48,822 nt of DNA from Tunavirus T1, in sequence record MN153797.1. The stretch is one strand, 5' to 3'. How positions within the stretch are numbered: the first letter of the stretch is position 1; each line of letters opens with the position of its first letter. Shown one piece after another: positions 25,044 to 46,071 of this stretch. A model generated the notes under the pieces. That model did no database searches and had not been told where the DNA came from. It was given only the letters and a program-made list of their open reading frames with translations. The position numbers and the translations under genes are program-made.

Positions 25044-28000
25044 ATGATTCAAAAAGTGATAAGCGGATCTAAAGGTGGGTCACAGAAGCCTCATAACCCA
25101 GTTGAGATGGAGGACAATCTAATCTCAATCAACAAAATCAAGATCCTGTTAGCTGTATCTGATGGTGAAATTGACGAAACATTCAGCCTGAAGCAGTTGA
25201 TGTTTAACTCAGTCCCGGTGCAAAACGAGGATGGCTCATTTAACTTCGAGGGAGTAAAGGCAGAGTTCAGACCTGGGACGCAGACTCAGGAATATATCAA
25301 GGGAATGGAAGATAGCTCTAGTGAGGTAACTGTAAATCGTGAGGTTACTACCGATAACCCATACACAATCTCAGTAACCAACAAAACGCTGTCGGCAATC
25401 CGTATCAAAATGTTCATGCCTCGCGGCGTACGAATTGAAAGTAACGGTGATAAAAATGGCGTAAGAGTTGAGTATGAGGTGCAACAAGCTGTTGATGGCG
25501 GCTCGTTTGAGACGGTGCTCACCGATGTAATCGAAGGCAAAACAATGTCAGGTTACGATCGGAGCAGACGTGTAAACCTACCTAACTTCAACAATCAGGT
25601 GATATTCAGAGTGGTTCGGAAAACTCCAGACTCTAACGACTCGAACGTTGTTGACGCGATTCAGGTAAAGAGCTATGCCGAGGTGATTGATGCCAAATTC
25701 CGTTATCCGCTGACTGGTCTTCTTTTTGTCGAGTTTGATTCGAAGATGTTCCCAAACCAGTTACCTACGATCTCAATTCGTAAGCGCTGGAAGATTGTAA
25801 ACGTTCCGTCAAACTATGATCCAGAATCACGAACTTATAACGGAAATTGGGATGGAACTTTTAAGAAGGCATGGACGAATAATCCGGCCTGGGTGCTTTA
25901 TGACCTGATGATTAATCAGCGTTATGGCTTGGATCAGAAAGAGCTTGGTATCGCTGTAGATAAATGGGCGCTCTACGAGGCTGCGCAATATTGCGATCAG
26001 ATGGTTCCTGATGGGAAGGGCGGGACGGAACCTCGATACCTTTGCGACGTGATAATCCAGTCTCAGACTGACGCTTACAAGGTTATCCGAGATATTTGCT
26101 CAATCTTTCGTGGTATGAGCTTTTGGAATGGTGAGAGCATTTCGGTAATCATCGACAGGCCGCGTGAACCTGCGTACATCTTCACTAACGACAACGTTGT
26201 TAATGGTGACTTCTCCTACACGTTCGCAAGCGAAAAGAGCATGTACACGACGTGTAATGTGATGTTTGATGATGAACAAAACATGTATCAGCAGGACGTT
26301 GAGCCAGTATTCGATCGTGAGGCTACTCTACGGTTTGGGAACAACGTTACGAGCATTACAGCGATCGGTTGCACACGTCGAAGCGAGGCCAACCGACGCG
26401 GGAGATGGATTCTGAAAACTAACCTCCGCAGCACTACGGTAAACTTCGCTACCGGGCTTGAGGGCATGATCCCGACAATCGGAGATGTTGTGGCAATAGC
26501 TGATAACTTCTGGTCAAGTAACTTGACAATGAACCTGTCAGGGCGTTTGCTCGAAGTGTCTGGAAGTCAGATTTTCTTGCCGTTCCGGGTGGATGCACGC
26601 GCTGGTGACTTTATTATCGTAAATAAGCCAGATGGCAAGCCTGTGAAGCGCACAATCTCAAGTGTTAGTGCGGATGGTAAGACTATAGAGGTTAACATTG
26701 GCTTTGGCTTTCCTGTGAAGCCTAACACGGTATTCGCTATCGACCGCACCGACATTGCGTTACAGCAGTACGTCGTGACAAAAATCGATAAGGGCGATGA
26801 TGATGAGGAATTTACCTACAAAATAACGGCGGTGGAGTACGATCCTAACAAGTATGATGAGATTGATTACGGAGTTAACATCGACGACCGACCGACGAGC
26901 ATCGTTGAACCAGATCAGATCCCTAGACCGAAAAATGTGCAAGTATCCTCAGAGTCGAGAATCGTCCAGGGGATGAGCGTAGAAACGATGATTGTTAGCT
27001 GGGATAAAGTTCCGTACGCTGTTTTCTATGACGTCCAGTGGCGAAAGGATAACGGCAACTGGCAAAATGTACCGCAGACAGCAAACAAAGAGGTATACGT
27101 TGAAGGTATTTACGCTGGCAACTATCAGGTTCGCGTTCGCTCAGTCGCTGGTTCGGGCACGACTTCAGGCTGGTCAAATATCGTCGCGGCAACGTTGACG
27201 GGTAAACAGGGTGAACCGGGCCGACCGATTAACCTCACAGCTACGGATGATGTTGTTTTTGGTATCCGTACAAAATGGGGGTTCTCTGATGGTTCTGGAG
27301 ATACAGCCTATACAGAGTTGCAACAGTCACCGGATGGAACAGTGGATAACGCAAGTTTGCTTTCTTTGATTCCGTATCCGCAGCATGAGTATTATCACTC
27401 ACCAATGCCTGGAGGGAATATTGTTTGGTATCGGGTAAGGATGGTTGACAGGATCGGTAACGTGTCTCAGTGGACTGATTTTGTCAGAGGTATGGCATCA
27501 ACAAACGTTGACGATATCATTGGGGAGATTTCTGTTGATATCGAAAACTCACCTGGTTACGAGTGGCTTGTTGATAACGCAACAGACAACGCGGCGCAGA
27601 ACTCAGCTAACGCAGAGGCAGCAATAGAAAACGCGCTCGCCAATGACAAAGACGCGATCTACATGAAGAAGGAGAACGGAAAACGAAAAGCTGAGTACAC
27701 GAAATCACTGAAACTTATTGCTGATGAGACGCAGGCACGAGTGACGGCGATCGAGCAATTGAAGGCAAGTTTTGGCGATCAGATTAGCGCTAGCAACAGC
27801 GAGCTGCGTGAGGTTATCGCAACCGAGACTGAAGCACTATCGCGTGAGATTGACCAGCTTAAGGCTCAGATTGGTGACGATATTCAGGCAAGTCTGACTG
27901 ATATTCGGGAGGTTATCGCAACCGAGACTGAAGCACTATCGCGTGAGATTGACCAGCTTAAGGCTCAGATTGGTGACGATATTCAGGCAAGTCTGACTGA

Positions 28001-28562
28001 TATTCGGGAGGCTATCGCGAACGAGACTGAGGCTAGAACGCAAGCTGACTTAACACTTAGCGCGCGGCTTGGAAATAACGAGGCGGCACTTGCTCAAAAA
28101 CTAGACTCGTGGAGTAACGCGGATTCTACTGGTGCAATGTACGGTGTCAAGTTGGGTCTGAAATACAACGGCCAGGAATACAGTGCAGGCATGGCTATGT
28201 CTCTAGTTGGTTCCGGAGCTGCGGTTAAGGCGCAGATTTTGTTTGAGGCGTCACGATTTGCCATCATGACTGGAATGAATGGTCAGACTCAGTACCCCTT
28301 CGTTGTTGAGAATGGTCAGGTTATTTTAAGTAGCGCGATTATCAAGAACGGATTCATCACCAACGCAATGATTGGAAACTTCATCCAGTCGAATAACTAT
28401 GTATTTAACCAGTCCGGATGGAGGCTTGACAAGGGTGGAACATTCGAAAATTGCGGAAGTGACGGTGAGGGTGCAATGAAGCAAACTAATACCACAATAT
28501 CTGTTAGGGATGCGAGTGGTCGCCTGAGGGTTCAGATTGGCAGGTTGACTGGCTCATGGTAA
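25044..28562 (+). CDS. central tail fiber / host specificity protein (lambda J-like)
   Basis: 1172-aa ORF after M-L-K-I block; contains in-frame 99-bp tandem repeat. Confidence 0.8.
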   Translation: MIQKVISGSKGGSQKPHNPVEMEDNLISINKIKILLAVSDGEIDETFSLKQLMFNSVPVQNEDGSFNFEGVKAEFRPGTQTQEYIKGMEDSSSEVTVNREVTTDNPYTISVTNKTLSAIRIKMFMPRGVRIESNGDKNGVRVEYEVQQAVDGGSFETVLTDVIEGKTMSGYDRSRRVNLPNFNNQVIFRVVRKTPDSNDSNVVDAIQVKSYAEVIDAKFRYPLTGLLFVEFDSKMFPNQLPTISIRKRWKIVNVPSNYDPESRTYNGNWDGTFKKAWTNNPAWVLYDLMINQRYGLDQKELGIAVDKWALYEAAQYCDQMVPDGKGGTEPRYLCDVIIQSQTDAYKVIRDICSIFRGMSFWNGESISVIIDRPREPAYIFTNDNVVNGDFSYTFASEKSMYTTCNVMFDDEQNMYQQDVEPVFDREATLRFGNNVTSITAIGCTRRSEANRRGRWILKTNLRSTTVNFATGLEGMIPTIGDVVAIADNFWSSNLTMNLSGRLLEVSGSQIFLPFRVDARAGDFIIVNKPDGKPVKRTISSVSADGKTIEVNIGFGFPVKPNTVFAIDRTDIALQQYVVTKIDKGDDDEEFTYKITAVEYDPNKYDEIDYGVNIDDRPTSIVEPDQIPRPKNVQVSSESRIVQGMSVETMIVSWDKVPYAVFYDVQWRKDNGNWQNVPQTANKEVYVEGIYAGNYQVRVRSVAGSGTTSGWSNIVAATLTGKQGEPGRPINLTATDDVVFGIRTKWGFSDGSGDTAYTELQQSPDGTVDNASLLSLIPYPQHEYYHSPMPGGNIVWYRVRMVDRIGNVSQWTDFVRGMASTNVDDIIGEISVDIENSPGYEWLVDNATDNAAQNSANAEAAIENALANDKDAIYMKKENGKRKAEYTKSLKLIADETQARVTAIEQLKASFGDQISASNSELREVIATETEALSREIDQLKAQIGDDIQASLTDIREVIATETEALSREIDQLKAQIGDDIQASLTDIREAIANETEARTQADLTLSARLGNNEAALAQKLDSWSNADSTGAMYGVKLGLKYNGQEYSAGMAMSLVGSGAAVKAQILFEASRFAIMTGMNGQTQYPFVVENGQVILSSAIIKNGFITNAMIGNFIQSNNYVFNQSGWRLDKGGTFENCGSDGEGAMKQTNTTISVRDASGRLRVQIGRLTGSW
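27811..28008 (+). repeat. Perfect 99-bp tandem duplication (2 copies plus a diverged partial third) inside the J-like gene
   Basis: Unit aggttatcgcaaccgagactgaagcactatcgcgtgagattgaccagcttaaggctcagattggtgacgatattcaggcaagtctgactgatattcggg repeats at 27811 and 27910; encodes the same 33-aa segment twice. Confidence 0.85.
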
Positions 28563-32695: not shown

Positions 32696-34312
32696 CTACG
32701 TATTTTTTAAGCTTTCAACAAACTCTCCAGATACCATTCTTTCATGATTTCTTTTGCACTCTTCAACCTTCTTGTTGTAAATCGAGTCATTAGGCATCTC
32801 AACTCGAACGCTAACAAAAACATCACTCGGAATGTCAATAGGATCTCCGTCGCTATACCCATCCTTATGATTTCTTGCGAATGAAGGCGCGTTATCATGA
32901 GTTCTATGATAAGTCTTGATAACCAAAGACCCATCAGGGTTAACATCATAATCTACCCACAATATAGGCTGTCCGTTAATGTCTTTTGGTATCTCTATGC
33001 CACCATTAACACCACCCCACGCTAGATCAGAATTTAGTGATAAACACCCCCTTATCAAATACTCGCCAGTAGAAATCCTCTCAACTGTACAACCTTCGCT
33101 CTCGTCGTTTGTTCTATGGCTCCCGTTGCCAAAAATATCAACGATGGGCGAGGCTCTTTTTATAAATCCGTTAGAGTCAACGGTTGTATTGCCTGTATTC
33201 CATATAACCTGGGTAGATTGCCATTGCCCCGCTCCTGTCTGTTTTCTGAGCCTCACATCCTTATAGTGTGGAGAGGTCATTGATGCGTCTTCAATAACAA
33301 AACCGAAAGCACTACCATCTCCTTGACCGTTTCTATGACGAACAGATATAGCTGTGACCCATCCAACAGAATTAACATTGTAACTTGCAAGGCTGCTAGG
33401 CTGAGATGATAAGGCGTTAACATAATCTACCCAGCTTGATTTCTCGTTAGATGCCGGACTTGATACAACGTTACCGGAAGAACTTGCCTGAAACGGTATC
33501 CACGGAGAAAACTTTGCATTATTGCCGTTTTTCATCCTTATGTAAAAAGTGCCGCGACCCGCTCTTGCGTATTCGTTTTGAGAATTTCCAGATTCTGGGT
33601 CAGTACCCAAATAAGTAAAAGGCGTAAATCTCTGAATGCAAGCGCTTGCACCGTTAGCTCCATTAGGAAGAACCTCAAGCATACCTGCCGTAGCCTCAGG
33701 ATAGCCCCTACTAGCGGTAGCTAAAGCACTTGATGATTGCATATATATTCCAGGGCCATCACCTTCACCAGTTATTGAATCAAGATGTTTTTCCCCTAAG
33801 TTAGTTCTATCAAGTTTGTAAACCTTTAGGCTTGTCCTTGCCTGCTCCTCGGTAGTTCCACCAGTGCCACCAAAATTAACCCCTAGAGCCTTGTTTTCAC
33901 TTCCATCATGAGTCATGGCGCCCCAGTCGCCGCTATCCTTGACGATCAGCTTAAATCCGGTCCTATCGTCATTTGAATAGATTTCCGTTAAATCTCCGCG
34001 AGGTTGATTTAATCTATTTACTGCTAGATTTTTCTTTGATTGCTCCTTGTCAGCAAGGCCAGAAAGATTTCCGTCCTTAGTTAAAAGATTGTCAGCATTA
34101 ACGCTATTTGCTGCGTCCTGAGCTTCCTGAGCACTTACCGCTGCCGCGTCTTTAGCGCTAACCGCCGCATCGCGTGCTGCCTGGGCATCGTTTTTTGCTG
34201 AGGTTGCAGTTTGCGCCGCAGTCTGAGCATCATTAACATAGCCAGATAGATCGCCTTTAGCGTCATTAATTTCTTGAACGATATTGTTCAGTGTCCATAT
34301 CAAGATCGGCAA
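32696..34312 (-). CDS. tail fiber protein, C-terminal fragment (no ATG, no RBS; TTG is the first in-frame start)
   Basis: 538-aa ORF; N-terminus repeats the C-terminus of 34412..34867; Ala/Gln-rich coiled region then Gly/Ser/Asn-rich distal domain. Confidence 0.6.
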   Translation of the reverse strand: MPILIWTLNNIVQEINDAKGDLSGYVNDAQTAAQTATSAKNDAQAARDAAVSAKDAAAVSAQEAQDAANSVNADNLLTKDGNLSGLADKEQSKKNLAVNRLNQPRGDLTEIYSNDDRTGFKLIVKDSGDWGAMTHDGSENKALGVNFGGTGGTTEEQARTSLKVYKLDRTNLGEKHLDSITGEGDGPGIYMQSSSALATASRGYPEATAGMLEVLPNGANGASACIQRFTPFTYLGTDPESGNSQNEYARAGRGTFYIRMKNGNNAKFSPWIPFQASSSGNVVSSPASNEKSSWVDYVNALSSQPSSLASYNVNSVGWVTAISVRHRNGQGDGSAFGFVIEDASMTSPHYKDVRLRKQTGAGQWQSTQVIWNTGNTTVDSNGFIKRASPIVDIFGNGSHRTNDESEGCTVERISTGEYLIRGCLSLNSDLAWGGVNGGIEIPKDINGQPILWVDYDVNPDGSLVIKTYHRTHDNAPSFARNHKDGYSDGDPIDIPSDVFVSVRVEMPNDSIYNKKVEECKRNHERMVSGEFVESLKNT

Positions 34313-34330
34313 TAATATCCATGCCGATGC
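34197..34330. repeat. Direct repeat copy A (134 bp) of tail fiber coding sequence
   Basis: Matches 34418-34555 except three small indels (agt/tgag, gtg/gttg, cca/ccaa). Confidence 0.8.
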
Positions 34331-34355
34331 AGATTAGTGATAGCCTTGTCGGTTG

Positions 34356-34402
34356 CTGAATAAATAAAAAAAATAGGGGCCCCCCCCCCCTTTTTTATTC
34401 AG
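34356..34402. other. Palindromic element ctgaataaa-taaaaaaaa-tagggg-C11-ttt-tttattcag between the two repeat copies
   Basis: Inverted arms 34356-34364 and 34394-34402; homopolymers A8, G4, C11, T6 read directly. Confidence 0.8.
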
Positions 34403-34411
34403 ATAGACACG

Positions 34412-34867
34412 TCACGTGCTGAGGTTGCTGAGTTGCGCCGCAGTCTGAGCATCATTAACATAGCCAGATAGATCGCCTTTAGCGTCATTAATTTCTTGAA
34501 CGATATTGTTCAGGTTGTCCATATCAAGATCGGCAATAATATCCAATGCCGATGCGATCTCAGTCTCTTTGCTCTGGTAGTACCGAAGCGTCTCAGCGAC
34601 GTTTTGCGCAAGACCGTTAACGGTCAATGAATCGTTAAGCAAGATCACATACTTACCGTCAGCGGCAGTCTGACCATCCGTAGAGATAGCCTTTAGCTCT
34701 GTGTCGCTCACAATGTCGCTGATTACCGCCAGTTTAATTGGTTGCTCCAGGAATACGATAGTTGCACCGACTCGAATCAGAGCAAGCTGATCTTTCCATT
34801 TTGTATCGGTTCCGTGAACCGTACCGTCTGCATCCATTGATGCAGTACCGCGTCTATATAAAGCCAT
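34412..34867 (-). CDS. tail fiber protein, N-terminal fragment (151 aa) ending just after repeat copy B
   Basis: ATG 34867 with RBS aaggag; C-terminal ..LNNIVQEINDAKGDLSGYVNDAQTAAQ duplicated at start of 32696..34312. Confidence 0.55.
   Translation of the reverse strand: MALYRRGTASMDADGTVHGTDTKWKDQLALIRVGATIVFLEQPIKLAVISDIVSDTELKAISTDGQTAADGKYVILLNDSLTVNGLAQNVAETLRYYQSKETEIASALDIIADLDMDNLNNIVQEINDAKGDLSGYVNDAQTAAQLSNLST
34418..34555. repeat. Direct repeat copy B (138 bp) of tail fiber coding sequence
   Basis: See copy A. Confidence 0.8.
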
Positions 34868-34888
34868 AGTATAAACTCCTTAAGTAAA

Positions 34889-34935
34889 TAGCACGAATTG
34901 CTAAGCAATGATTTTATCATTGTGATACCTGCCTT
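34889..34935 (-). promoter_or_regulatory. Sigma70-like promoter for tail fiber (minus: TTGCAA, 17 bp, TAAAAT) with box tagcacgaattgcta over the predicted start site
   Basis: Read on minus strand: cattgcaaggcaggtatcacaatgataaaat then box at 34889-34903. Confidence 0.45.
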
Positions 34936-34944
34936 GCAATGGGC

Positions 34945-34968
34945 AATAAAAAACCGCCCGAAGGCGGT
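34945..34968 (-). terminator. Rho-independent terminator after primase gene
   Basis: Minus strand: accgcc-ttcg-ggcggt then TTTTTTATT. Confidence 0.65.
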
Positions 34969-35903
34969 TAGAGTAGGTCACTTGCTGAGAATAATTTGGC
35001 TTGCATTCCTGAGCGGTATCCTCCGGGATTCGGTATGATTATTTTTAATTGTCTGTCGTCTGCCATGTACAAGGTATCCTTGTCTGAAGGTTCACACGCC
35101 ATCCTTACCTCTCGATCACCTTTATACCTGTATGCAACCATTTCGAGGTTTTCAGGGGTGAAGCAGGCCCATACCTCTTGCTTTGTGTGAAATGCAATAT
35201 GCTGAGCATCAATCCAGTTAAGGCATAAGTAGATCGCCTTTTCAGTTTTACCAGTCACGGCAACCGAGCAACTCGTGTATTTCTTCGCATAAAATGACTC
35301 TCTTCCTTCTTCATCAATAATCAAAATATTGCAAAACTCATCATCAAGCCCATCCTCGTGCACAAGTTGACACGGTATAGTGTGAAATACGCTCTCTCTT
35401 CCATCCTCGCTACGCTTTATACCGACATCGAATGATTCGGTGGGTAGTGACTCAAACACGCTCAACGGCGTATTTACACGTTTCTCTGTGCGCTCCATAA
35501 CCTTCATCACCGCCTCATGTTCAGCCATCATGACATTGACACCTGACACCGGAGTCCGGCGCGCTTTCTTGTTTGCCTTGACGATGTATTCCTGCGGAAC
35601 CTTTCCGAGAAATCTTCCCAGGATGTTTACGCATTCGCTGTACGGCATACCAGTCAACTTCATCAGCCAGCCAATACCAGAGTCGTTACCGCATGAGTTG
35701 CAGATCGCACCGCCGTCGCCCGGGGTGTTCAGGTTATCAGTCCAGCGAAATCGGTCTTTACCGCCGCAGTTGGGGCAGGGTTGGTGCTTCTTATTAAAAA
35801 CATTATTCGGCAATCCGCAGATTGATTGGAAAGCCTCGCGCCATAACCCCTTCATGTACGGTAAAACGTCCTCTTTCTGAAACATCATAAATTCTTCGTT
35901 CAC
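34968..35903 (-). CDS. DNA primase-like protein (zinc-ribbon)
   Basis: CPNCGGKDRF..CNSC zinc-binding motif near N-terminus. Confidence 0.5.
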   Translation of the reverse strand: MNEEFMMFQKEDVLPYMKGLWREAFQSICGLPNNVFNKKHQPCPNCGGKDRFRWTDNLNTPGDGGAICNSCGNDSGIGWLMKLTGMPYSECVNILGRFLGKVPQEYIVKANKKARRTPVSGVNVMMAEHEAVMKVMERTEKRVNTPLSVFESLPTESFDVGIKRSEDGRESVFHTIPCQLVHEDGLDDEFCNILIIDEEGRESFYAKKYTSCSVAVTGKTEKAIYLCLNWIDAQHIAFHTKQEVWACFTPENLEMVAYRYKGDREVRMACEPSDKDTLYMADDRQLKIIIPNPGGYRSGMQAKLFSASDLL

Positions 35904-35964
35904 TTCCAGATCTCCAAAATAAAAAACGCGTAGAAGGATGTTAACCCGCTACGCGTCGTTTGTT

Positions 35965-36417
35965 TTAACTAAAAATGCTATTGGTCGTTCCGATATCTTC
36001 CCTCTTCACGACGCGCATAAATTTCTTGTTCTTGCATCGCTTCTCAAGGCACTTGCCGTTACCGTCAAACTTCAGGTCGAATCGCAACCATGCGGCCCTA
36101 AACCCTTTGCACCCCTGTCGGCGGTAAGCACGATGCGCAGCTTCAGCGCCTTGCCATGAAATCATATTGCGTTCTTTCCAGCCTTGCACCGTCTGATTGC
36201 TAACCTTCAGAGCCTTTGCGCAGGCCGCCGGGCCGCCGTAATATTCGATAAGGGCATCAAGTCGCGCTCGCAGTCCGGCGCGCGTTTCTTCTTTATGAAT
36301 ATAGAACCCGCAACGCTGGCGAGGCTTTTTATCTTTACCGCGCCGTGTTCCGTTGTTACCATTGATGTGACGTTTATCGATTTCACCAGTTGACTCTGCG
36401 ATACGTTGAATACTCAT
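35965..36417 (-). CDS. helix-turn-helix DNA-binding protein (candidate transcription regulator)
   Basis: HTH-like segment GGPAACAKALKVSNQTVQGWKERN; divergent from helicase promoter. Confidence 0.45.
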   Translation of the reverse strand: MSIQRIAESTGEIDKRHINGNNGTRRGKDKKPRQRCGFYIHKEETRAGLRARLDALIEYYGGPAACAKALKVSNQTVQGWKERNMISWQGAEAAHRAYRRQGCKGFRAAWLRFDLKFDGNGKCLEKRCKNKKFMRVVKREDIGTTNSIFS

Positions 36418-36430
36418 CTTGATTCCCCTA

Positions 36431-36473
36431 TAGCACTTTTTGCTAAAAACGTTTACTTTATGCCGTGTATTAT
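36431..36473 (+). promoter_or_regulatory. Box-dependent promoter: tagcactttttgcta + TATTAT (36468-36473)
   Basis: Centre to -10 = 30 bp; -10 in hairpin aacgtttac..gtaaacgtt. Confidence 0.55.
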
Positions 36474-36510
36474 AGCGTAAACGTTACAACGATTCAAAGG
36501 ATTAATAGCC

Positions 36511-38529
36511 GTGACAATGAACATTAAAAAACAGATTGCATTACTTGGCGATGACTATATAAAGAGAACTCAGGAGCGATTTACTGTTGGTGAGGTTGTT
36601 CCTTATCCGTACCAGGTTGTTGCTTATGCCGAGATCGCGAAACGCCTATCAAATTACGAGCATCCATTCTTCGTTAAAGCGTCTGTATCCGCAGGTAAGA
36701 CAATCATCTTCGCTATGGTGGCAAAGCAGTGTCAGAAAATGGGCTTAAAAATGCTTGTCCTGGCTCGTCAGGGTGAGATTGTCGATCAGGATAGCGAAGA
36801 GATCGACAACTTCGGGGTAACGAACTCCATCTTCTCAGCGTCACTTGGAATCAAGTCCTGCTACTTCCCGATCGTGGTTGGCTCAGAGGGTACTGTTGCA
36901 AATGGCCTCGACAATGAGTTAGCTGATTTCGTCCCGCATGTAATTGGGATCGACGAATGTCACCAGGTGGATTGGGAAGACCTTGCGCAAGCCATCGAGG
37001 GTAAGGAAACAATGGAACAAATGAGGGGCGAGAAAGGGAAAATTATCATGGACGGAGATATTCCCCTGATTGGTAATGATGGAAAGCCTTTGCTTGGAAC
37101 TAAGCGCAGTCAGTACACGATCGTAATCATGGAAATGATGCGGCGCTGTAAAAAGGTTCACGGTCACGATCTCAGAATATTTGGTATGACTGGATCTGAA
37201 TTTCGTGGCGTAGTTCCTATTCTGGTAGAGAATCCGAAAGCATTGGGATTCTGGCGTGAGCGAGTAACTGATATCGACACAAACTATCTGATTGAGTTCG
37301 GCTCTGTCGTTCCGACTATATTCGGATCAACAGACGGAGTTCATTACGATCTTGATAAGTTCAAGGCGTCTAGCGAGGACGGAGTGCAGGACTTTACAGA
37401 GAAAGACATGAAGGCTATGGAAGATGAGATCCTTCATGATAAATCTCTGACTCAGCGAATCATGCAAATGGTCGCCAAAAAGGCAGAAGAACGCAATGCG
37501 GTCCTGATTACATGTGCTGGTGTGCGCCACTGCAAAGATGCAGCGGCAGCACTTCCTCCGGGAAGCACCTATGCAATTATTACTGGCGACACAGACAACA
37601 AAGCGCGCAAGAAGATTCTTGACGATGTAAGGGCCGGAAAAATTAAATACACCTTTCAGGTAATGGCGCTCACTACTGGCGTTAACGTTCCAAATTGGGA
37701 TTTCAGTGTCATACTCCGCAAGATAGGATCGCTCACTCTGTTGATTCAACTTTTGGGTAGGGGTATGCGACTGCTTAAATACTGGCAGGTTGCTGAAGGA
37801 ATGGTTAAGCAGGACCATCTGGTATGGGATTTTGCAGGTACGATGGATGAGCTGGGTCAGCTTTATTTCGATCCGATACTTGAGCAGGCGCAATTCCAGA
37901 AGCGTTTTGAAAACGGCAAAGATCCGAAAACATGTCCGAAATGCGGTTGCGTAAATAGCTTCTATGCTCGACGATGCGTTAATGTCATTGATGGTGAGCG
38001 TTGCGATCATTTCTGGACTTCTCAGATTTGTGAGGACCAGGTTGACGAGCGAACCGGGAAAATCCTTGTTAAAGGATGCGGTGCAGAGAATGACGTTGTT
38101 GCGCGAGTCTGTCGTTGTTGTGATGCTTCTCTTGTCGATCCTAACCTGAAGTTATCCGGTAAGGCGTACACCAAGAATGACTGGTATGAAGTAAAGAATT
38201 TTGAGGTTACGCTAACCAAAAACCAGAAAGGCATAATATACAAATACACTCTGATTAACGACGATGGTGATGAGTTCAAGGCGTATGAAAAATTCTTCCC
38301 CGAGTCTGACTCTAAGATTTGCGGTACGCTATGGAAAACTAAAGGTGTACTTCCTCATGTGTCAGATCCTAAAATGCGCCGCTACTTTATCGGAATGAAG
38401 AACGCCATCAAGATTTTGCAATACTCACATCATATTGCTCACCCGGTGCGCGTAACTCATCGTCGCAACCAGAAGAAAGAAGATATCATCTCACGCAAAG
38501 ACTTCGGTATGGAGGATATCCCGGAATGA
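36511..38529 (+). CDS. SF2 DEAD/DEAH-type helicase with C-terminal Cys-rich zinc-finger region
   Basis: Walker A SVSAGKT, Walker B DECH; CPKCGC and CRCC clusters; GTG 36511 or ATG 36517 start. Confidence 0.7.
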   Translation: MTMNIKKQIALLGDDYIKRTQERFTVGEVVPYPYQVVAYAEIAKRLSNYEHPFFVKASVSAGKTIIFAMVAKQCQKMGLKMLVLARQGEIVDQDSEEIDNFGVTNSIFSASLGIKSCYFPIVVGSEGTVANGLDNELADFVPHVIGIDECHQVDWEDLAQAIEGKETMEQMRGEKGKIIMDGDIPLIGNDGKPLLGTKRSQYTIVIMEMMRRCKKVHGHDLRIFGMTGSEFRGVVPILVENPKALGFWRERVTDIDTNYLIEFGSVVPTIFGSTDGVHYDLDKFKASSEDGVQDFTEKDMKAMEDEILHDKSLTQRIMQMVAKKAEERNAVLITCAGVRHCKDAAAALPPGSTYAIITGDTDNKARKKILDDVRAGKIKYTFQVMALTTGVNVPNWDFSVILRKIGSLTLLIQLLGRGMRLLKYWQVAEGMVKQDHLVWDFAGTMDELGQLYFDPILEQAQFQKRFENGKDPKTCPKCGCVNSFYARRCVNVIDGERCDHFWTSQICEDQVDERTGKILVKGCGAENDVVARVCRCCDASLVDPNLKLSGKAYTKNDWYEVKNFEVTLTKNQKGIIYKYTLINDDGDEFKAYEKFFPESDSKICGTLWKTKGVLPHVSDPKMRRYFIGMKNAIKILQYSHHIAHPVRVTHRRNQKKEDIISRKDFGMEDIPE

Positions 38530-38942
38530 TTACAGACAAAGGTGATTATTTAGAATTTTACGAGAGAGACACAAGCGACACTCGAAAGGAGGATGCTCAT
38601 CAGGTGGATTGTGTATCTTGGCTGAAATACAATTTCCCTCACCTTCTATTTTGGCACACTGTCAATGAAGGTGAAAAAACAATCACATCGGCGCTCAGGG
38701 ATGAGCAGGCAGGATTACTTAAAGGCGTGTCAGACTTCGTTATCCTGATTGGTGTTAACTCACGATACCCGTTTGCAGCAATCGAACTTAAGCGGGTTAA
38801 TAAGTCAGGCAAAGGAAAGGCGTCACCAGTCAGCGACAAGCAAAGGGAATTTCTCCAAAAGGTCAGGGAGCGTGGCGGCTTCTCTGCCGTCGCATACGGA
38901 TTCGGGCAATTCAAGATCGCAATTTACGAAATGATGAAATAG
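38526..38942 (+). CDS. VRR-NUC-like nuclease domain protein
   Basis: PD-(D/E)XK-like core VSDFVIL..AAIELKR; overlaps helicase stop. Confidence 0.45.
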   Translation: MITDKGDYLEFYERDTSDTRKEDAHQVDCVSWLKYNFPHLLFWHTVNEGEKTITSALRDEQAGLLKGVSDFVILIGVNSRYPFAAIELKRVNKSGKGKASPVSDKQREFLQKVRERGGFSAVAYGFGQFKIAIYEMMK

Positions 38943-38982
38943 CACTTTTTGTTAAAACTGCCGGGATGGAATCTGGCATTAT
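38940..38982 (+). promoter_or_regulatory. Box-dependent promoter: tagcactttttgtta + TGg-CATTAT (38977-38982)
   Basis: Centre to -10 = 30 bp; box TAG = upstream stop. Confidence 0.5.
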
Positions 38983-39009
38983 TATCTCACCAAAACGAGA
39001 GGAATAAAA

Positions 39010-39723
39010 ATGAAAGACTTTAATGATATCGAAACTATCGACTTTGCAGAAACTGGTTGCTCATTCACTCGCGAAGCAATAGCATCAGGCGGTTATTATC
39101 AGGCATTGAAAACGCCAACCTGTAAAGAGATTTCAGGGCGTCGATACAAGGGGACAAATACCCCTGACGCTGTTCGTGATTTATGGTCAACTCCGCGAGA
39201 GGTTATTGCATACCTTGAGGGTCGTTATGGGAAATATGATCTCGACGCTGCGGCAAGCGAAGAAAATAAAGTTTGCGAGAAGTTTTACTCTCAGGAAACA
39301 AACTGCTTAAAACGTTGGTGGGGAAAGAATAAGCACGTTTGGTTAAATCCTCCTTATAGCCGACCTGATATATTTGTCAAGAAGGCCATTGAGCAAATGG
39401 AGCACAACAATCAGATCGATATGCTTTTACCTGCAGATAACTCTACTGCGTGGTTTACTGAAGCGCGGCAGAACGCAGCTGAAATAATCTGGATTGAAGC
39501 GGACTTGACTGAGGATATTGACGGCAATGAATACGCACGATCCGGTCGCCTGGCTTTCATATCCGGTGAAACTGGAAAGGCCGTATACGGTAATAACAAA
39601 GGTTCGGTAATTTTTATTATGCGCGAACTTAAAGAAGGTGAGGTGCAACAGACTCACTACATCCCAATCACAAGCATTTGCCCTTCGGTGAAAAACAAAC
39701 GAGCAAAGGTGAGGAAAGTATGA
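39010..39723 (+). CDS. dam: DNA N6-adenine methyltransferase (Dam-like)
   Basis: Catalytic motif NPPY in WLNPPYSRP; RBS gagagga. Confidence 0.65.
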   Translation: MKDFNDIETIDFAETGCSFTREAIASGGYYQALKTPTCKEISGRRYKGTNTPDAVRDLWSTPREVIAYLEGRYGKYDLDAAASEENKVCEKFYSQETNCLKRWWGKNKHVWLNPPYSRPDIFVKKAIEQMEHNNQIDMLLPADNSTAWFTEARQNAAEIIWIEADLTEDIDGNEYARSGRLAFISGETGKAVYGNNKGSVIFIMRELKEGEVQQTHYIPITSICPSVKNKRAKVRKV

Positions 39724-39971
39724 TGAGCGAAAAAATGGTTCCTGTTAAATTAACTGAGCAAGGTTTATGGCTACTTTATCGAGCTACGTGCTGCGAAATT
39801 ATGGAGCGAAACGGATTGACTCAGGATGTTATTGGTTGCGATCTGTGGGAGTTCACTAGTTCTCTTGATATGTCTTTCGATGAGATAAAAAATGAATACA
39901 TAGAGAACTGGCCTTCAATCATACAGAAAGACGTGGAAGAACTTAAAGCTGATACAATCGTACAGCACTAA
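39720..39971 (+). CDS. hypothetical protein
   Basis: ATG overlaps dam stop; RBS ggtgagga. Confidence 0.45.
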   Translation: MMSEKMVPVKLTEQGLWLLYRATCCEIMERNGLTQDVIGCDLWEFTSSLDMSFDEIKNEYIENWPSIIQKDVEELKADTIVQH

Positions 39972-40005
39972 TTGCTAAAACTACCCGGCGAAAGTCGGGT
40001 ATAGT
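39963..40005 (+). promoter_or_regulatory. Box-dependent promoter: cagcactaattgcta + TATAGT (40000-40005)
   Basis: Centre to -10 = 30 bp; hairpin acccgg-cgaaagt-cgggt just upstream of -10. Confidence 0.5.
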
Positions 40006-40037
40006 TATTTCATAGAAACGAAATGAGGAATCAGAAG

Positions 40038-40247
40038 ATGGCACGCATTAACGCAAACTTTTTCAATATCGCTCAGCAGTCCGCAAAAATGGCTGTTCAT
40101 ATTACGAACAAGCAAGGCGGCAACTTCGATTGGGATATTGCTATGAACTTCCTTAAAATGTCTTATTACCGTTGCTCAGTTGAAGAAGTCGAAGGCTTCA
40201 TCTCTGACGTGGAGAAATTAACTAATGCTGATAAAAAAGCAAGGTAA
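40038..40247 (+). CDS. hypothetical protein
   Basis: ATG 40038 with RBS tgagga. Confidence 0.45.
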   Translation: MARINANFFNIAQQSAKMAVHITNKQGGNFDWDIAMNFLKMSYYRCSVEEVEGFISDVEKLTNADKKAR

Positions 40248-40497
40248 GCGCGAAGTGTGGGAGCACGCAAAGGAATGCGGCATCTCAGACGATATAGCAT
40301 TAATTGCTAAATACTTTGATATAAAGGATGTTAGCATTATATCAAACGGCAAGATTTCATTTATGGAAGGTATGCCGAGAAAAATGCAAAGAGTTCCAGC
40401 CACTCCATCACTTGAGTTTTACCGCGAAGAGGGAAAGAGAATTGAGCGAGAAAGAAAATCCACAAAAAACGGCAAGTCTTCCAGGCTTAAATATTAA
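40225..40497 (+). CDS. hypothetical protein
   Basis: ORF track only. Confidence 0.35.
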   Translation: MLIKKQGKREVWEHAKECGISDDIALIAKYFDIKDVSIISNGKISFMEGMPRKMQRVPATPSLEFYREEGKRIERERKSTKNGKSSRLKY

Positions 40498-40729
40498 TGC
40501 GGACGAATACCAGGCAATATGGATCGGGAAAAAGCAGGTTAAGCAAATCCCTTTCTCTGACTGGTTGCCACCTGACTTTGTTAATGTGCTTTGCACTATC
40601 GGTATTGAGCAGGAGTTGCATATAGGTTACTACTCACCTGGCCGAAACAGTATGATGCTTGAGGTTGACGGAAAGCTCGTTGAGTTTAAATCTTCAGATC
40701 TAGGATTCTGGTTAAAGGCTGTGGCATGA
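40328..40729 (+). CDS. hypothetical protein, start unresolved (overlaps previous ORF in another frame)
   Basis: ORF track only. Confidence 0.3.
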   Translation: MLALYQTARFHLWKVCREKCKEFQPLHHLSFTAKRERELSEKENPQKTASLPGLNINADEYQAIWIGKKQVKQIPFSDWLPPDFVNVLCTIGIEQELHIGYYSPGRNSMMLEVDGKLVEFKSSDLGFWLKAVA

Positions 40730-40807
40730 AACTTTATTTTGCTGTAGTATTAACACCGCTAATTTCATTTTCAGTAATGTATTTCATTATCATGTAAGGA
40801 TTAAAAT

Positions 40808-41941
40808 ATGTCACAAGCTAAAATCACTACCGAGCAACTTATCGAAGAGCGCATGAGCGGCCTGACACTTCGCGAGATCGCGGAAAAGTACGGTATGCAC
40901 ATTCGCACTGTCGAGGCGCGTCACGCAAAACTTGCAAAAGAAGGCCACTTCCACGGCAACGAGCATGTTGCTAAGATGGTTCCGGAAGGCTTCATGGTAA
41001 AAGGCACGTCAACCATGATTGACGCGGAAGGTAACGAGAAGATTCGTTGGGTTAAGACATCAGTTGATAATGAGCGCCTTGAGGTTCTAATGGAAAAAGC
41101 GCGTGAAGCATTCTGTTCAGAGTTGCCTAAGGCTATTCCATCTGAATCACCTGACGTTAGTTTTGATGAAGACACGCTTGCGATGTATCCAGTTTTTGAT
41201 TTGCACATTGGTGCTCTTGCTCACAAACATGAGTGCGGCGAAAACTACGACACAGCGACAGCAGAGAAGGTTATGAATGGGTTCTTTGACTACGCTGTAG
41301 ATAAGGCGCCAAACTCAAAGAATGCCGTATTGGTATTGGGTGGCGATTTCCTACATTACGACTCTTTGGAGTCTAAGACTCCAGCGTCAGGCCATTACTT
41401 AGATTCTGACAGTCGTTACGCTAAGCTTGTTTATGTCGCAATCCGATCAGTACGACGCGCAGTCTCTCGAATGCTGGAGAAGCACCAAGTTATTGATATT
41501 AAAGCAATAAGTGGGAATCACGACGAATCAGGGATGGTTTGGTTGCGCGCTGCGCTTGCTGCATTTTATGAAGATGAGCCGCGCGTAAATGTTGATGTTA
41601 GCCCTGCCGCAATGATGATGACCAGCTTTGGTAAGACCCTTATTGGATACACTCACGGGCATCAAATGCGAAAAGCAGATACTCGACTAAGTGTTATGGC
41701 AACTGATTTTCGTAAGTTGTTTGGTCAAAGTGATTACGTTTACACGCATAGCGGTCACTGGCACAGTCAAAAGATTACAGAAACAAACTTGGGTATTGAT
41801 GAGGTTCATGGTCAGCTTGGAAGTCCTGACGCATACTCTGCCAATGGCGGTTGGAGGTCTCAGCGTCAAGCTGCTGTGATTGTCTATCACAAGGAATTTG
41901 GTGAGGTTGGACGATTCATTTGTCGACCTGAAATGTTCTAA
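40808..41941 (+). CDS. calcineurin-like metallophosphoesterase with N-terminal HTH-like segment
   Basis: Motifs LVLGGDFLHYD and ISGNHDESG; N-terminal LTLREIAEKYGMHIRTV. Confidence 0.55.
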   Translation: MSQAKITTEQLIEERMSGLTLREIAEKYGMHIRTVEARHAKLAKEGHFHGNEHVAKMVPEGFMVKGTSTMIDAEGNEKIRWVKTSVDNERLEVLMEKAREAFCSELPKAIPSESPDVSFDEDTLAMYPVFDLHIGALAHKHECGENYDTATAEKVMNGFFDYAVDKAPNSKNAVLVLGGDFLHYDSLESKTPASGHYLDSDSRYAKLVYVAIRSVRRAVSRMLEKHQVIDIKAISGNHDESGMVWLRAALAAFYEDEPRVNVDVSPAAMMMTSFGKTLIGYTHGHQMRKADTRLSVMATDFRKLFGQSDYVYTHSGHWHSQKITETNLGIDEVHGQLGSPDAYSANGGWRSQRQAAVIVYHKEFGEVGRFICRPEMF

Positions 41942-41942
41942 A

Positions 41943-41985
41943 TAGCACCTTTTGTTAAAACAGTACCCGCGAAAGCGGGTATTAT
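41943..41985 (+). promoter_or_regulatory. Box-dependent promoter: tagcaccttttgtta + TATTAT (41980-41985)
   Basis: Centre to -10 = 30 bp; hairpin acccgc-gaaa-gcgggt. Confidence 0.5.
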
Positions 41986-42013
41986 TGTTTTATAGAAACA
42001 AGAGGAGATTGCA

Positions 42014-42496
42014 ATGAACTGGCACGAGCATTACGAATATAGGGATGGTGTTCTATATCACAAGGTAAAGCCATGCAGAAGGCATGATGTAAATATTGGG
42101 GATGTTGCTGGAAGGGTTGCCAAAAACGGCTATCACTATGTTGTTCACAAGAACAGGCCGTATAAGAGATCTCGAGTTATATGGGAGATGTTTAATGGTG
42201 AGATACCAGATGGTTTTGTTATAGATCATCTGAATCACAATGCCACCGATGATAGGATCGATAACCTTGAGTGTAAGCCAAGAAGAGAGAATATGGTTAA
42301 TGTTAAGTTAAGGATTGATAGCACGACCGGAGTAACTGGCGTATCAAGAAAGAGGGATAACAAGTGGAGGGCGTACATAACAATTATGGGTAAGCAGAAG
42401 TGCAAGAGCTTTGACACGTTTGAGGAAGCTTGCGCGCAGAGGATTGAATGGTCAGTAACTCATGATTTTCACCCAAATCACGGTGGAACATACTAA
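42014..42496 (+). CDS. HNH homing endonuclease
   Basis: GVLYHK..DHLNHNATDDRIDNL..GVTGVS motifs; paralog of 5465..5959. Confidence 0.7.
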   Translation: MNWHEHYEYRDGVLYHKVKPCRRHDVNIGDVAGRVAKNGYHYVVHKNRPYKRSRVIWEMFNGEIPDGFVIDHLNHNATDDRIDNLECKPRRENMVNVKLRIDSTTGVTGVSRKRDNKWRAYITIMGKQKCKSFDTFEEACAQRIEWSVTHDFHPNHGGTY

Positions 42497-42539
42497 TAGC
42501 ACCTTTTACCTAACCCGCGCCACAGAAGTGCGGCATAGT
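42497..42539 (+). promoter_or_regulatory. Box-dependent promoter (degenerate box tagcaccttttacct) + CATAGT (42534-42539)
   Basis: Centre to -10 = 30 bp. Confidence 0.4.
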
Positions 42540-42568
42540 AACCACATCGAAAACAGAGATGCTATATC

Positions 42569-42745
42569 ATGAAGATAGTCAAGTGCATCCGAAATGACTC
42601 CAAAACACTTCCATTCCGTGTAAATCAGATCTATAGTGTTGGTTATGATTTCGGTGGGGGATTATTTGAGATTTACGACGGGCGAGGTTCAGCAATCCAG
42701 ACTCCTCTGAACGGTCACTACCTGGAATTTATTGAGATAGATTAA
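42569..42745 (+). CDS. small hypothetical protein (58 aa)
   Basis: ATG after promoter; not in ORF track (under 60 aa); weak RBS. Confidence 0.3.
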   Translation: MKIVKCIRNDSKTLPFRVNQIYSVGYDFGGGLFEIYDGRGSAIQTPLNGHYLEFIEID

Positions 42746-42863
42746 CAATAGCATTCATCACCTTACAGGCTGGCATGATTTACATGCTGGCCTTTTTGCG
42801 TTGTGTCAAATAAATTTGAAGGTTAAAATCTACTCACTTGTTCAAAAAATATATGGTGAGATT

Positions 42864-43079
42864 ATGAAAGAGTTTTTAACGGCTGCTACGTCAAGCACTG
42901 GCGGTGCTTCGTTGGTAGGGGCGGCGACAGGGCAACTTTATATTGCTGGCGCTACATTCATTTGCTTTCTGCTTTTTGGTGCCTGGGGAGCGTACTGGAA
43001 GTATCGTGATAGCAAGGCAATTCAGGAAGCGTTAAACGATGGCGATCTAAATAAGGCGCTTAAGATCAGGGGGAGATAA
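42864..43079 (+). CDS. holin (small TM protein upstream of endolysin)
   Basis: Internal ATG of ORF 42801..43079; hydrophobic core [21 protein letters not shown], charged C-terminus. Confidence 0.5.
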
Positions 43080-43567
43080 TGAGTTTAAAAAATAACGTTA
43101 TAGGCGCATCAATCGGGGCCGCTTTGACGTTGACACCTACCCTACTGGAACGGATCGAAGGTATAGAATACGAGGTTTATTACGATATCGCCGGAGTCCC
43201 TACCGTATGCAGCGGAATAACCGGGCCTGACGTCATACCTGGTAAGAAATACACTAAGCGAGAATGCGATGCATTGCTGATAAAACATATCGGCGTCGCT
43301 CAGCGATACGTTGACAAGAAGGTTAAGGTTGACATTCCGGTAACTATGCGCGCATCACTGTATAGCTTCACTTTCAACGTTGGGACTGGCGCTTTCGGAT
43401 CGTCTACAATGCTTAAGCTAATCAATCAGAGCAAGCACAAAGAAGCGTGTAATCAGTTATGGCGATGGGTATACTACTACAACCCAAAAACCAAAAAGCG
43501 CGAAGTGTCGAGAGGGATCAAGAATCGGCGCGCTGAAGAATACGCATATTGCGTTAAGGAACTATAA
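43079..43567 (+). CDS. endolysin (lysozyme-like, probable N-terminal signal-anchor-release segment)
   Basis: N-terminal weakly hydrophobic [17 protein letters not shown] then [21 protein letters not shown] lysozyme-like region. Confidence 0.7.
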
Positions 43568-43968
43568 TGAAACTTAAGAAAACGTGCATTGCAATTACGG
43601 TTGCTGTTGGTGTGATTTCTCTATCCGGTTGTTCGACGGCATCTGCTCTGAGTGGTTTACTTTCTGACTCCCAGGATGTTACGGCGCAGGTTGGCGCTGA
43701 GAACACAAAACAACTAGCAGGAGTAACAGCAAAGGCGGATGATAAGCGAGAAGTGAAGGTGAGTGATTCAAATATTGGCAAGATTGACTCATCCGTCAAG
43801 AAGTCCGTGGAGGTGTCAACCATTCAGGCCAACACGGTTAACGCTGAAAGCATCACAGTAACCAAATCTGGAAGCTGGTACGATCCTGTGGTTTGCTGGA
43901 TTCTCGTTTTTATTGTCCTGTTGCTGTTTTATTTTTTAATTCGTAAGCACGAAAAAAAGGAGGCGTAA
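43567..43968 (+). CDS. unimolecular spanin (lipoprotein signal plus C-terminal TM helix)
   Basis: N-terminal lipobox LSGC, C-terminal TM WILVFIVLLLFYFLI; directly after endolysin. Confidence 0.6.
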   Translation: MKLKKTCIAITVAVGVISLSGCSTASALSGLLSDSQDVTAQVGAENTKQLAGVTAKADDKREVKVSDSNIGKIDSSVKKSVEVSTIQANTVNAESITVTKSGSWYDPVVCWILVFIVLLLFYFLIRKHEKKEA

Positions 43969-43980
43969 GCCTCCTTTCTT
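43951..43980. terminator. Bidirectional terminator
   Basis: aggaggc-gtaa-gcctcct with A/T runs on both sides. Confidence 0.55.
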
Positions 43981-44182
43981 ATTTGTACCTTTTGACGTGA
44001 AGTAGCAACTCCCCATCCTGATCGCAAAGATTGTGCTCACCGTCGTTATTGGCCCTCATCGAAGTGAGCAGTAGGCTAAGTAATCCTTGCTCAAATTCTT
44101 CTTTCGTAAGCTGGAGCCTTGCGCACAATTCGACGTTCCGATCTATCAATGTTTCTACGTTCGCCAAACAAGTCTTCATCAC
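43979..44182 (-). CDS. hypothetical protein
   Basis: ORF track. Confidence 0.4.
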   Translation of the reverse strand: MMKTCLANVETLIDRNVELCARLQLTKEEFEQGLLSLLLTSMRANNDGEHNLCDQDGELLLHVKRYK

Positions 44183-44498
44183 TCATTTCTCCAATGTGCA
44201 TCATTTCCCACGTATATCGATTGTTGTAGCCATCAATACACATCAGCTTCATCATTACCGGGCGCTTGATCTTTCCCTTGCACCAGTAAAATCCACCCTT
44301 GCAATCAAGATAACCCTCAGTCACGCAGCGTGCGCAAAACTCCTTAGACAGCGCGCTTGTAAATTCACGGCGAGTCATTCCGGCGGCCTTAGCAAATCGC
44401 TCACTTTCCTTGTGGGCGTATATAAATTTCGCTATGTGCTGTCGAGTGTATTTGTCGTAACCTTCGCAGAACCTGAACAGATCTAAAAGAAGAAGCAT
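44091..44498 (-). CDS. hypothetical Cys-rich protein
   Basis: ORF track; 92-nt out-of-frame overlap with downstream ORF. Confidence 0.4.
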   Translation of the reverse strand: MLLLLDLFRFCEGYDKYTRQHIAKFIYAHKESERFAKAAGMTRREFTSALSKEFCARCVTEGYLDCKGGFYWCKGKIKRPVMMKLMCIDGYNNRYTWEMMHIGEMSDEDLFGERRNIDRSERRIVRKAPAYERRI

Positions 44499-44502
44499 AT
44501 TA

Positions 44503-46071
44503 TTAACCCATCAGTCGAGGATTGATGAAAACAATATCATCAATCCGGCAAGTGTAGTTCATCTCTTCGAGCGTGATCAGCAGGCTGTCGATTCGCTCAG
44601 CTACTTTTTGTTGACCGTTGAACGGCGTAACGTTACGGCACTTTGCAACAATGCTATGAATAGGTGCGCGACCTTTGTTCTTCTTTGCGATCTCAGTGAT
44701 AACATCAATCAGCTTACGAGATTCAGCCTCATCACCAGCATACCCGGCGGCGCTGGCAGACGACAGATAGGTTCTGGAAAGCTCATTGAAAATCATGATC
44801 GCTTCCTGCATTGTTTCAAGGTCAATCTCACGGTTGGAACGGTTCGGTGATTCACCCTCCCAGTTCTTGATTGTGTGAAGAACTGAAGCAATGCGCAAAG
44901 CGTGCTTATCGAACTTGCCGAGATGACCGCGTAGCATTGAGTGAGAGTATTTGCCCCCGGCTGCGAAATCCGGCTCCATAGCCTGGCGAGCAAGGTTTAA
45001 TTCACGCATAGCATTACGGCTTACAGAGAGAACAACGTTGTCCTCCTTCATAATGTTGTGCACAAGTCGATAATATTTACTCACCAATCCTCGATCGACT
45101 TCCTTATACAGTGCATCACCATTTTCATCGCAAAGAATACGAGTGCCTAAAAGAGGTTCCTCGCGAACCAATAGGAAACGCTCAGATACACCGATACCGC
45201 GCTGGCCTGCGTCCATGATACCCTTGATTGTTTCATCCTGCGCAATGACGCAGATCGAACCGACCGGGCAAAGAGATAAGTTATTGTCCTGATTTGAACG
45301 CGCAACCTCCATATGGTTTTTATCCCACGCCTTGAGGATAAGCTCGCTGTTTGATTTCTTATCAGAACCGCCATAAGTCAGGCCAAGCAATGTATTTATT
45401 GCCGTTGCCTCATCAGAGATTACGGAAAAGTGGCCTTGAACAGCAGCTACTTTCGCAAGACCTTCCGGTGTAGGATCTGATACCGCGAAAACAATATCAG
45501 CCATCTTCTTGATCTTCTCTTCCAGTTTTTCCTTGTCCTCGTACAGCGCCGCCGTCGTGTTACCCTTCGGATCGTTTTTGATTTCCTTCTCGATCTGACG
45601 TAGCTGACTGGTTAAACGGATACGTTCCTTTTTGCGCTCTTCATTCAGTCTCTGAATCTCTGCGCGCATAGGTGTAATCGCCGCTGAGTTAATCGCGGAT
45701 TTACCTGTTGATGGTGGCTGGCTAATCACCATATAAAGAGCGGTCGGTTGTTCTTCTCCGTGATATTGCACCCAAAACTTCCCTAGCATCGCGGCTGAGA
45801 TGCACCCAATGAAATGAGCGTACGCAGACGAAACAGGAAACTGTACAGACTCAGCTTTTGCTTTTGCATATTCGAATACCAGGTTATCGCCACCTAACGA
45901 AATCAGCGGGAACTTATCGTTTCCACTGTTGATATCGATCGGGTCTTGCCAAAACGAAACTGAATCCCCGTAGCTGTTTTCACGAATTGCGATCGCCACC
46001 GGATTAACTCCAGTGCTATTTGCGATCTCAATAATCTGTTGGTAATTCAGTTTTGGCTTAATATTAAACAT
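44503..46071 (-). CDS. P-loop ATPase, putative replication protein
   Basis: Walker A-like PPSTGKS; probable start MFNIKP with RBS aaggag, overlapping HNH stop (TGATG); ORF-track 5' extension covers the promoter. Confidence 0.5.
   Translation of the reverse strand: MFNIKPKLNYQQIIEIANSTGVNPVAIAIRENSYGDSVSFWQDPIDINSGNDKFPLISLGGDNLVFEYAKAKAESVQFPVSSAYAHFIGCISAAMLGKFWVQYHGEEQPTALYMVISQPPSTGKSAINSAAITPMRAEIQRLNEERKKERIRLTSQLRQIEKEIKNDPKGNTTAALYEDKEKLEEKIKKMADIVFAVSDPTPEGLAKVAAVQGHFSVISDEATAINTLLGLTYGGSDKKSNSELILKAWDKNHMEVARSNQDNNLSLCPVGSICVIAQDETIKGIMDAGQRGIGVSERFLLVREEPLLGTRILCDENGDALYKEVDRGLVSKYYRLVHNIMKEDNVVLSVSRNAMRELNLARQAMEPDFAAGGKYSHSMLRGHLGKFDKHALRIASVLHTIKNWEGESPNRSNREIDLETMQEAIMIFNELSRTYLSSASAAGYAGDEAESRKLIDVITEIAKKNKGRAPIHSIVAKCRNVTPFNGQQKVAERIDSLLITLEEMNYTCRIDDIVFINPRLMG

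Follow-up and report, generated by a model that had tools for sequence, protein, structure and literature searches.

Sequence comparison with T1 and its relatives

The stretch of DNA analyzed here (the window, 48,822 nt) represents Escherichia phage T1, as indicated by its megablast matches to AY216660 (= NC_005833) and MK213796 (48,836 bp). At the locus under study, the minus strand carries two fragments of a tail fiber gene that are separated by a garbled stretch, and within this stretch lies a short palindrome with a run of 11 C residues (Table 1). The window is co-linear with AY216660, 99.87% identical to it, and has the same first and last bases. Its alignment with T1 consists of two blocks, 1-34278 and 34488-48822, which differ from T1 by 60 substitutions and one extra G; the sole structural difference is the aberrant stretch itself, window 34267-34500 versus T1 34267-34514. 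The T1 counterpart of this stretch is contained within one minus-strand ORF of 2187 nt, orf26, which is annotated as 'tail fiber' and encodes a protein of 728 aa.

Table 1. Features in and around the aberrant stretch of the fiber gene
Feature	Window coordinates	Strand	Description
C-terminal fiber frame	32696-34312	-	538 aa from TTG; C-terminal part of T1 orf26 (728 aa)
Segment A	34195-34267	-	Native fiber-shaft coding DNA, identical to AY216660 (T1 34194-34266); first direct-repeat copy and last normal sequence on the left
Segment B'	34266-34334	-	Degraded second copy of T1 34502-34572, without GT and A and with one extra A (local alignment)
M island 1	34335-34350	-	TAGTGATAGCCTTGTC = T1 34338-34353, 16/16, shift of only 3 nt
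Degenerate stretch	34351-34390		Between M islands 1 and 2
Palindrome	34356-34402	.	Degenerate rendering of T1 34359-34417; ~12 T1 nt missing between the halves
Palindrome arms	34356-34364 (left), 34394-34402 (right)		CTGAATAAA and TTTATTCAG, a perfect 9-nt inverted repeat
Homopolymer runs in the palindrome	34366-34373 (A8), 34376-34379 (G4), 34380-34390 (C11), 34391-34396 (T6)		A8 is followed by TA
M island 2	34391-34416	-	TTTTTTATTcAGATAGACaCGTCACG = T1 34406-34431, 24/26, shift of 15 nt
Segment A'	34417-34500	-	Second copy of T1 34195-34277, 81 nt exact; left end is an A/M mosaic at the 5-10-nt scale
N-terminal fiber fragment ORF	34412-34867	-	151 aa; ends at a TGA that arises inside the garbled stretch
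Segment B and rest of the fiber 5' region	34488-34867	-	Native T1 sequence resumes (T1 34502-34881)

Both T1 entries, AY216660/NC_005833 and MK213796, align to the window identically (99.4% identity, 97% of the query, 4 pieces) and annotate an intact 2187-nt fiber CDS at the position where the window is broken. The original prediction had tied the reality of the palindrome to its presence in independent isolates of the same phage; both entries are without it, and the C11 tract is wholly absent from them, not merely of another length. AY216660 contains no C or G run of more than 7 nt. DELF2 and JMPW1 are Tunavirus isolates independent of T1, and their fiber genes have a T1-like version of the segment that is disrupted in the window (M, defined below), of the same length as in T1 and free of such runs. 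The position homologous to the palindrome is in the middle of the ORF in T1 orf26 as well as in the fiber genes of DELF2 and JMPW1.

The two ends of the window, 1 and 48822, coincide with the ends of the GenBank T1 record, and positions 1-2800 are annotated in MK213796 as a repeat region. T1 packages its DNA by a headful mechanism. Ends that are identical to those of the record despite headful packaging suggest that the window was built on, or re-oriented to, a reference; taken together, the co-linearity, the high identity and the identical ends are consistent with a reference-anchored build.

The palindrome

Window positions 34356-34402 read CTGAATAAATAAAAAAAATAGGGGCCCCCCCCCCCTTTTTTATTCAG. 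This element was originally described as 9-nt arms enclosing A8, G4, C11 and a T-run, located between two repeat copies and just past the stop codon of the N-terminal fiber fragment, with C11 as the longest G/C run of the window. That description proved accurate throughout. The composition matches the letters exactly; the runner-up to C11 is the G8 run at 19536-19543; the repeat copies extend roughly over 34195-34330 and 34417-34555; and on the minus strand the palindrome begins 9 nt after the TGA at 34412-34414. The arms can be extended to 12 nt, with complementarity then at 92%, and the flanking direct repeats (~130 nt) have exact cores of 81 nt and 30 nt.

Under a first-order Markov model, 0.00025 C-runs of at least 11 nt are expected per window. 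The 31-nt core of the palindrome remains single-copy in the window when up to 3 mismatches are allowed, and 0 of 100 shuffles yielded a match. The window has 26 perfect inverted repeats of 9 nt with loops of up to 40 nt and the reference T1 genome 24, and because such repeats are common in T1, we rejected the view of the palindrome as statistically special. T1 itself already has a 6/9 inverted match at the site of the arms, and three base changes are sufficient to make the arms perfect over 9 nt. Two of these changes fit the general drift to A; the third, at 34400, is from G to C and departs from it. The element also has a mirror symmetry, in that both halves read CTGAATAAA followed by an A-run and a G-run, each in its own direction.

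IMG/VR, the JGI metagenomes and the GTDB genomes were scanned for exact copies of the palindrome and of the junction between segments A and B, with no match, and no RNA family in Rfam matched the palindrome at E<=1. A plasmid search in distant mode likewise returned no match to the palindrome, and a foreign or engineered origin was rejected on this basis. We also rejected a transposable or palindromic insertion of the MITE/IS type, since the element is single-copy and its ~130-nt flanks are copies of distant fiber sequence, not a target duplication.

Structure of the aberrant stretch

For the description of the aberrant stretch, T1 34194-34266 is designated A, the next 237 nt M, and T1 34502 onward B. 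In the window, A is followed by B' (B copied in degraded form), in-register remnants of M, A' (a copy of A), and B. The replacement is nearly length-for-length: the 69 nt of B' lie over 73 nt of the left part of M, and the 84 nt of A' over 83 nt of its right part. At a shift of 237 nt, displaced and incoming sequences share 7-10 matches per 30 nt, which is the background level, except for ~20 nt at the junction. Because the two are unrelated, homologous recombination or gene conversion cannot explain how the register was kept, and an exchange between 79-codon repeats, whether by gene conversion or by unequal crossing-over, was rejected accordingly.

The boundaries of the copied segments are mosaics with a grain of 5-10 nt. 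At one of them, GCAGATTAGTG combines B (GCGATCTC) and M (GCACATTAGTG); at the other, A is combined with M in GCTGAGGTTGCTGAGTTGCG. In the left half of the palindrome region (window 34331-34379), 37 of 49 positions match T1, and 7 of the 12 changes are to A. The C11 run overlies exactly the T1 11-mer GCTGCGTCTGG, directly before the conserved TTTTTTATT. Since the interior of the element aligns to the T1 fiber gene in this manner, the palindrome represents corrupted fiber-shaft coding DNA and not a foreign insert. The B' copy contains frameshifting indels, while the other copy of B is perfect. The fiber region as a whole is 15 nt shorter than that of T1, so that the reading frame is kept, an outcome that would have a 1-in-3 chance under an artifact and to that extent counts against one.

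A probable deletion in the fiber shaft

The N- and C-terminal fiber fragments share one frame and are separated by two in-frame stops. When window 34292-34513 (one repeat copy and all that lies between the copies) is removed, a clean in-frame deletion of 237 nt (79 codons) is obtained. The collapsed allele lacks fiber residues 126-204, which belong to an Ala/Gln/Ser-rich shaft, and encodes an otherwise intact fiber of 649 aa. The A/B junction is located in a short homeologous patch, GTCATTGATTGCCTGAA versus GACTTAATTTCTTGAA. Since the identical A/B junction is present twice in the window, the underlying data evidently contained molecules in which A was joined to B. The lateral tail fiber of the sequenced T1 stock thus seems to lack 79 residues of its alpha-helical shaft through an in-frame deletion, as far as a corrupted consensus allows this to be read, and this deletion is probably the only biology behind the aberrant stretch.

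When 50,697 phage records were searched by tblastn with the junction peptide, no match crossed the junction, and the collapsed junction has no match among E. coli complete genomes. Over all collections, the phage records, plasmids and E. coli genomes included, neither the palindrome nor the A/B junction turned up. By exact-protein look-up, neither the 151-aa fiber fragment nor the tape measure protein is on record. A search of the literature found no report of fiber deletions in T1.

Read-mapping simulation

We simulated error-free reads from the deletion genome, mapped them end-to-end on T1 and called a majority consensus over 5-6 rounds. The simulated consensus consists of A, B over the left part of M, a zero-coverage residue of M, A over the right part of M, and B, which is the layout of the window, and the palindrome of the window is located where the simulation has zero coverage. 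The lengths of B' and A' grow with read length, from 27 and 36 nt with 75-nt reads to 46 and 44 nt with 100-nt reads, 64 and 78 nt with 150-nt reads, and 104 and 110 nt with 250-nt reads. The observed copies (~67 nt for B' and ~73-84 nt for A') are consistent with 150-nt reads. The similarity of the simulated consensus to the window is also best at 150 nt among the four read lengths (75, 100, 150 and 250 nt), at 296 of a possible 366 versus 205 for plain T1. As the simulation gives the same architecture, read mapping on a reference explains both the layout and the boundaries.

The finer details were only partly recovered. A parameter sweep for the exact small indels of B' matched the boundaries and reproduced none of the individual indels, and the A8, G4 and C11 homopolymers did not appear in the error-free simulation. 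The homopolymer noise therefore needs another source, such as junk reads or the local reassembly of a polisher.

Proposed origin of the palindrome

Several properties of the aberrant stretch are those of a consensus artifact. It keeps reference coordinates, having been overwritten and not inserted, and holds remnants of the reference; collapsing its duplicated flanks gives a simple and biologically sensible allele; and the simulation yields its layout, without the homopolymer core. The palindrome is almost certainly no genetic element but a computational scar, left where the T1 side tail fiber gene was mis-reconstructed over a deletion of 237 bases. We further consider it likely that the unsupported, degenerate center of the stretch was produced when reads from a deletion variant were placed on the T1 reference, a process that we infer from a layout that the simulation reproduces.

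In the proposed sequence of events, the T1 stock would have carried, wholly or mostly, an in-frame 237-nt fiber deletion (residues 126-204) that joins A directly to B. Reads of ~150 nt would then have been placed on the 48,836-nt T1 reference and a consensus called, probably in several rounds. Junction reads anchored in A would have written B sequence over the left part of M, and those anchored in B would have written A sequence over its right part, so that the two apparent repeat copies would be the product of both overwritings. The middle ~80 nt would have been left without genuine reads, and there reference bases and low-complexity noise may have given rise to A8, G4, C11 and T6. We speculate that the succession of a G-run and a C-run reflects the orientation expected of poly-G-tailed forward reads on the left and reverse reads on the right. 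It counts against an artifact of this kind that a plain zero-coverage consensus would yield reference bases or Ns, not A8, G4 and C11. Also against it stand the three base changes that complete the arms, one of which is outside the drift to A, and the exact small indels of B', which the simulation did not recover.

The original prediction had allowed for junk from a contig end. Its first half is favored by the evidence in modified form, with the element as the unsupported center of a region that was mis-reconstructed, in a gene that T1 has in intact form; it is not a contig end.

Alternative explanations

Other non-biological origins can be envisaged and appear unlikely to us, among them the abutting of contig ends, a failed local reassembly by a polisher, and a generated or imputed rendition of T1. 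The ends in question would be low-quality or poly-G-tailed ends of de novo contigs that were abutted during reference-guided scaffolding or gap closing, and a generated rendition would have gone astray in the shaft region, which is repetitive and Ala/Gln-rich. Explanations of this kind gain from the chain A8-G4-C11-T6 and its mirror symmetry, which error-free mapping does not yield, from the lack of records for the two proteins looked up, and from the odd spectrum of the 60 substitutions (see below), biased from GC to AT, neutral in dN/dS and free of nonsense changes. However, the length-for-length overwriting, the copies that fit 150-nt reads and the co-terminal ends are specific predictions of reference mapping; contig-end joining would not leave in-register islands of M, and an autoregressive generator has no reason to regain the reference register after an excursion of 69 nt. 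Any of these origins leads to the same practical verdict as the mapping of deletion-variant reads on a reference.

Biological readings of the locus take the palindrome at face value. It could be part of a real rearrangement, in which a hairpin and T-run between ~130-nt direct repeats end transcription and translation after 151 codons and give a fiber-less laboratory variant. A simple terminator scan does flag the palindrome as terminator-like on both strands, its RNA folds have energies of -17.7 and -19.3 kcal/mol (z-scores of -2.9 and -1.7), and it follows the stop of the N-terminal fragment closely. A broken fiber gene might be tolerable, by analogy with losses of lambda stf and T5 ltf, and the lack of nonsense mutations in the rest of the genome suggests that it comes from a viable phage. 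The original suggestion of a terminating element is nevertheless borne out in one respect only, and weakly: there is a stem-loop with a T-run, whose stem has just 5 bp (4 G-C) and whose loop is a 7-nt homopolymer (C7/G7). The position is mid-gene in T1, DELF2 and JMPW1, the apparent gene end being a creation of the garbled stretch, and the palindrome is conserved in none of the T1 records or relatives. Moreover, no known mutational route gives a length-for-length replacement by unrelated sequence together with in-register islands and mosaics at the 5-nt scale, and B' has frameshifting indels while the other copy is perfect. We regard a real rearrangement of this kind as improbable. It is more improbable still that the arrangement is physically real in the fuller sense of a fiber broken after codon 151 with a hypermutable C11 scar, in which the 130-nt repeats could recombine to a shortened in-frame fiber; if this were true, the arrangement would be a recombination-based on/off switch for the side fibers. 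Least plausible of all, to the point of being hardly credible, is a role of C11/G11 as a contingency (phase-variable) tract in which slipped-strand length changes toggle fiber expression. An 11-nt homopolymer is long enough to slip, and this one is unique in the genome, but in each of the three minus-strand frames a stop within 34403-34414 precedes the G11 tract on its 5' side, two of these frames have a further stop beyond it, and no plus-strand ORF spans the tract. Changes in tract length therefore cannot alter any protein, and the phase-variable tract that had been suggested fails at this point: a frameshift switch was rejected on account of the stops in all frames, and no tract length fuses the two fiber fragments. 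The scan found no promoter-like site spanning the tract, which is thus outside any promoter spacer, and other T1 records lack it.

Comparison with known systems

Mapping of deletion-variant reads on a reference, our preferred reading, has its closest counterpart in the reference-bias or consensus artifacts that arise over a deletion. Shared with these are duplicated junction flanks around a residual, unsupported piece of the reference, in-register coordinates, mosaic boundaries, record-identical ends and a layout that is reproduced in silico. Unlike in such artifacts, the center here is low-complexity noise, neither N nor plain reference, and needs an added assumption. A candidate is the two-color Illumina chemistry, in which an absent signal is called as G and reads acquire poly-G tails. 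A G-run that precedes a C-run could, as a conjecture, represent forward and reverse 3' tails that converge on the gap; the A-runs are left unexplained by such tails. Two-color artifacts are discussed in PMC13218037, where the artifact studied is T>G substitutions, not homopolymers.

The palindrome resembles intrinsic terminators in its A-tract, G/C stem and T-tract. A genuine T1 terminator nearby, at window 34952-34969, is flagged by the same scan and has 7 pairs (5 G-C) and a 4-nt loop, compared with the 5-bp stem and homopolymer loop of the palindrome, and the palindrome, unlike intrinsic terminators, lies unconserved within a gene that shows no interruption in any of the relatives. The resemblance to homopolymeric contingency loci consists in a long G/C homopolymer in or beside a surface-recognition gene; unlike in those loci, the tract is outside any open frame or promoter spacer, and a change in its length has no readable consequence.

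Laboratory stocks of other coliphages lose or alter their side tail fibers, as in the stf frameshift of lambda PaPa and the ltf mutants of T5; to judge from such losses, lateral fibers are dispensable on K-12. The predicted 79-aa deletion in the T1 shaft would, by analogy, be a change of the same kind in a dispensable fiber. It differs from the lambda and T5 cases in having been deduced from a corrupted consensus and not directly observed.

The main value of these results is one of caution. Annotated at face value, the stretch would be given a split or pseudogenized fiber, a new terminator and a contingency tract, besides two repeats of 130 nt, and the phage probably has none of these. The record needs correcting before its fiber gene serves host-range or engineering work.

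Substitutions and other features

The 60 substitutions relative to AY216660 are strongly skewed (examples are found at 34, 662, 1615, 4356, 9292-9293, 20092, 33600 and 48019). At 48 sites a G/C of T1 is replaced by A/T in the window, comprising 32 G:C to T:A transversions and 16 G:C to A:T changes; only 9 substitutions go from A/T to G/C. By their effects (43 missense, 12 synonymous, 6 intergenic, with a neutral dN/dS) these changes look unselected, and nonsense substitutions number 0 versus 3.9 expected (P=0.02). A viable stock that accumulated mutations or suffered oxidative damage would fit such a spectrum, as would a non-natural source that avoids stops. The C-terminal part of the fiber gene has substitutions at 33600 (A428D, a missense change in the distal domain) and 32999 (G628G). 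The only tandem change in the genome is CC to AT at 9292-9293 in the large terminase gene (V116V, R117C).

The sole indel outside the fiber region is at 19536-19543, where the G7 of T1 is G8 in the window, just upstream of the tape measure start (RBS region); this is either a miscall of the homopolymer length or a real slip. The gpJ-like central tail fiber gene contains an internal direct repeat of 125 nt (27807-27931 and 27906-28030) with an offset of ~100 nt and 96.8% identity between the copies, and this repeat at 27807-28030 is also present in the reference T1.
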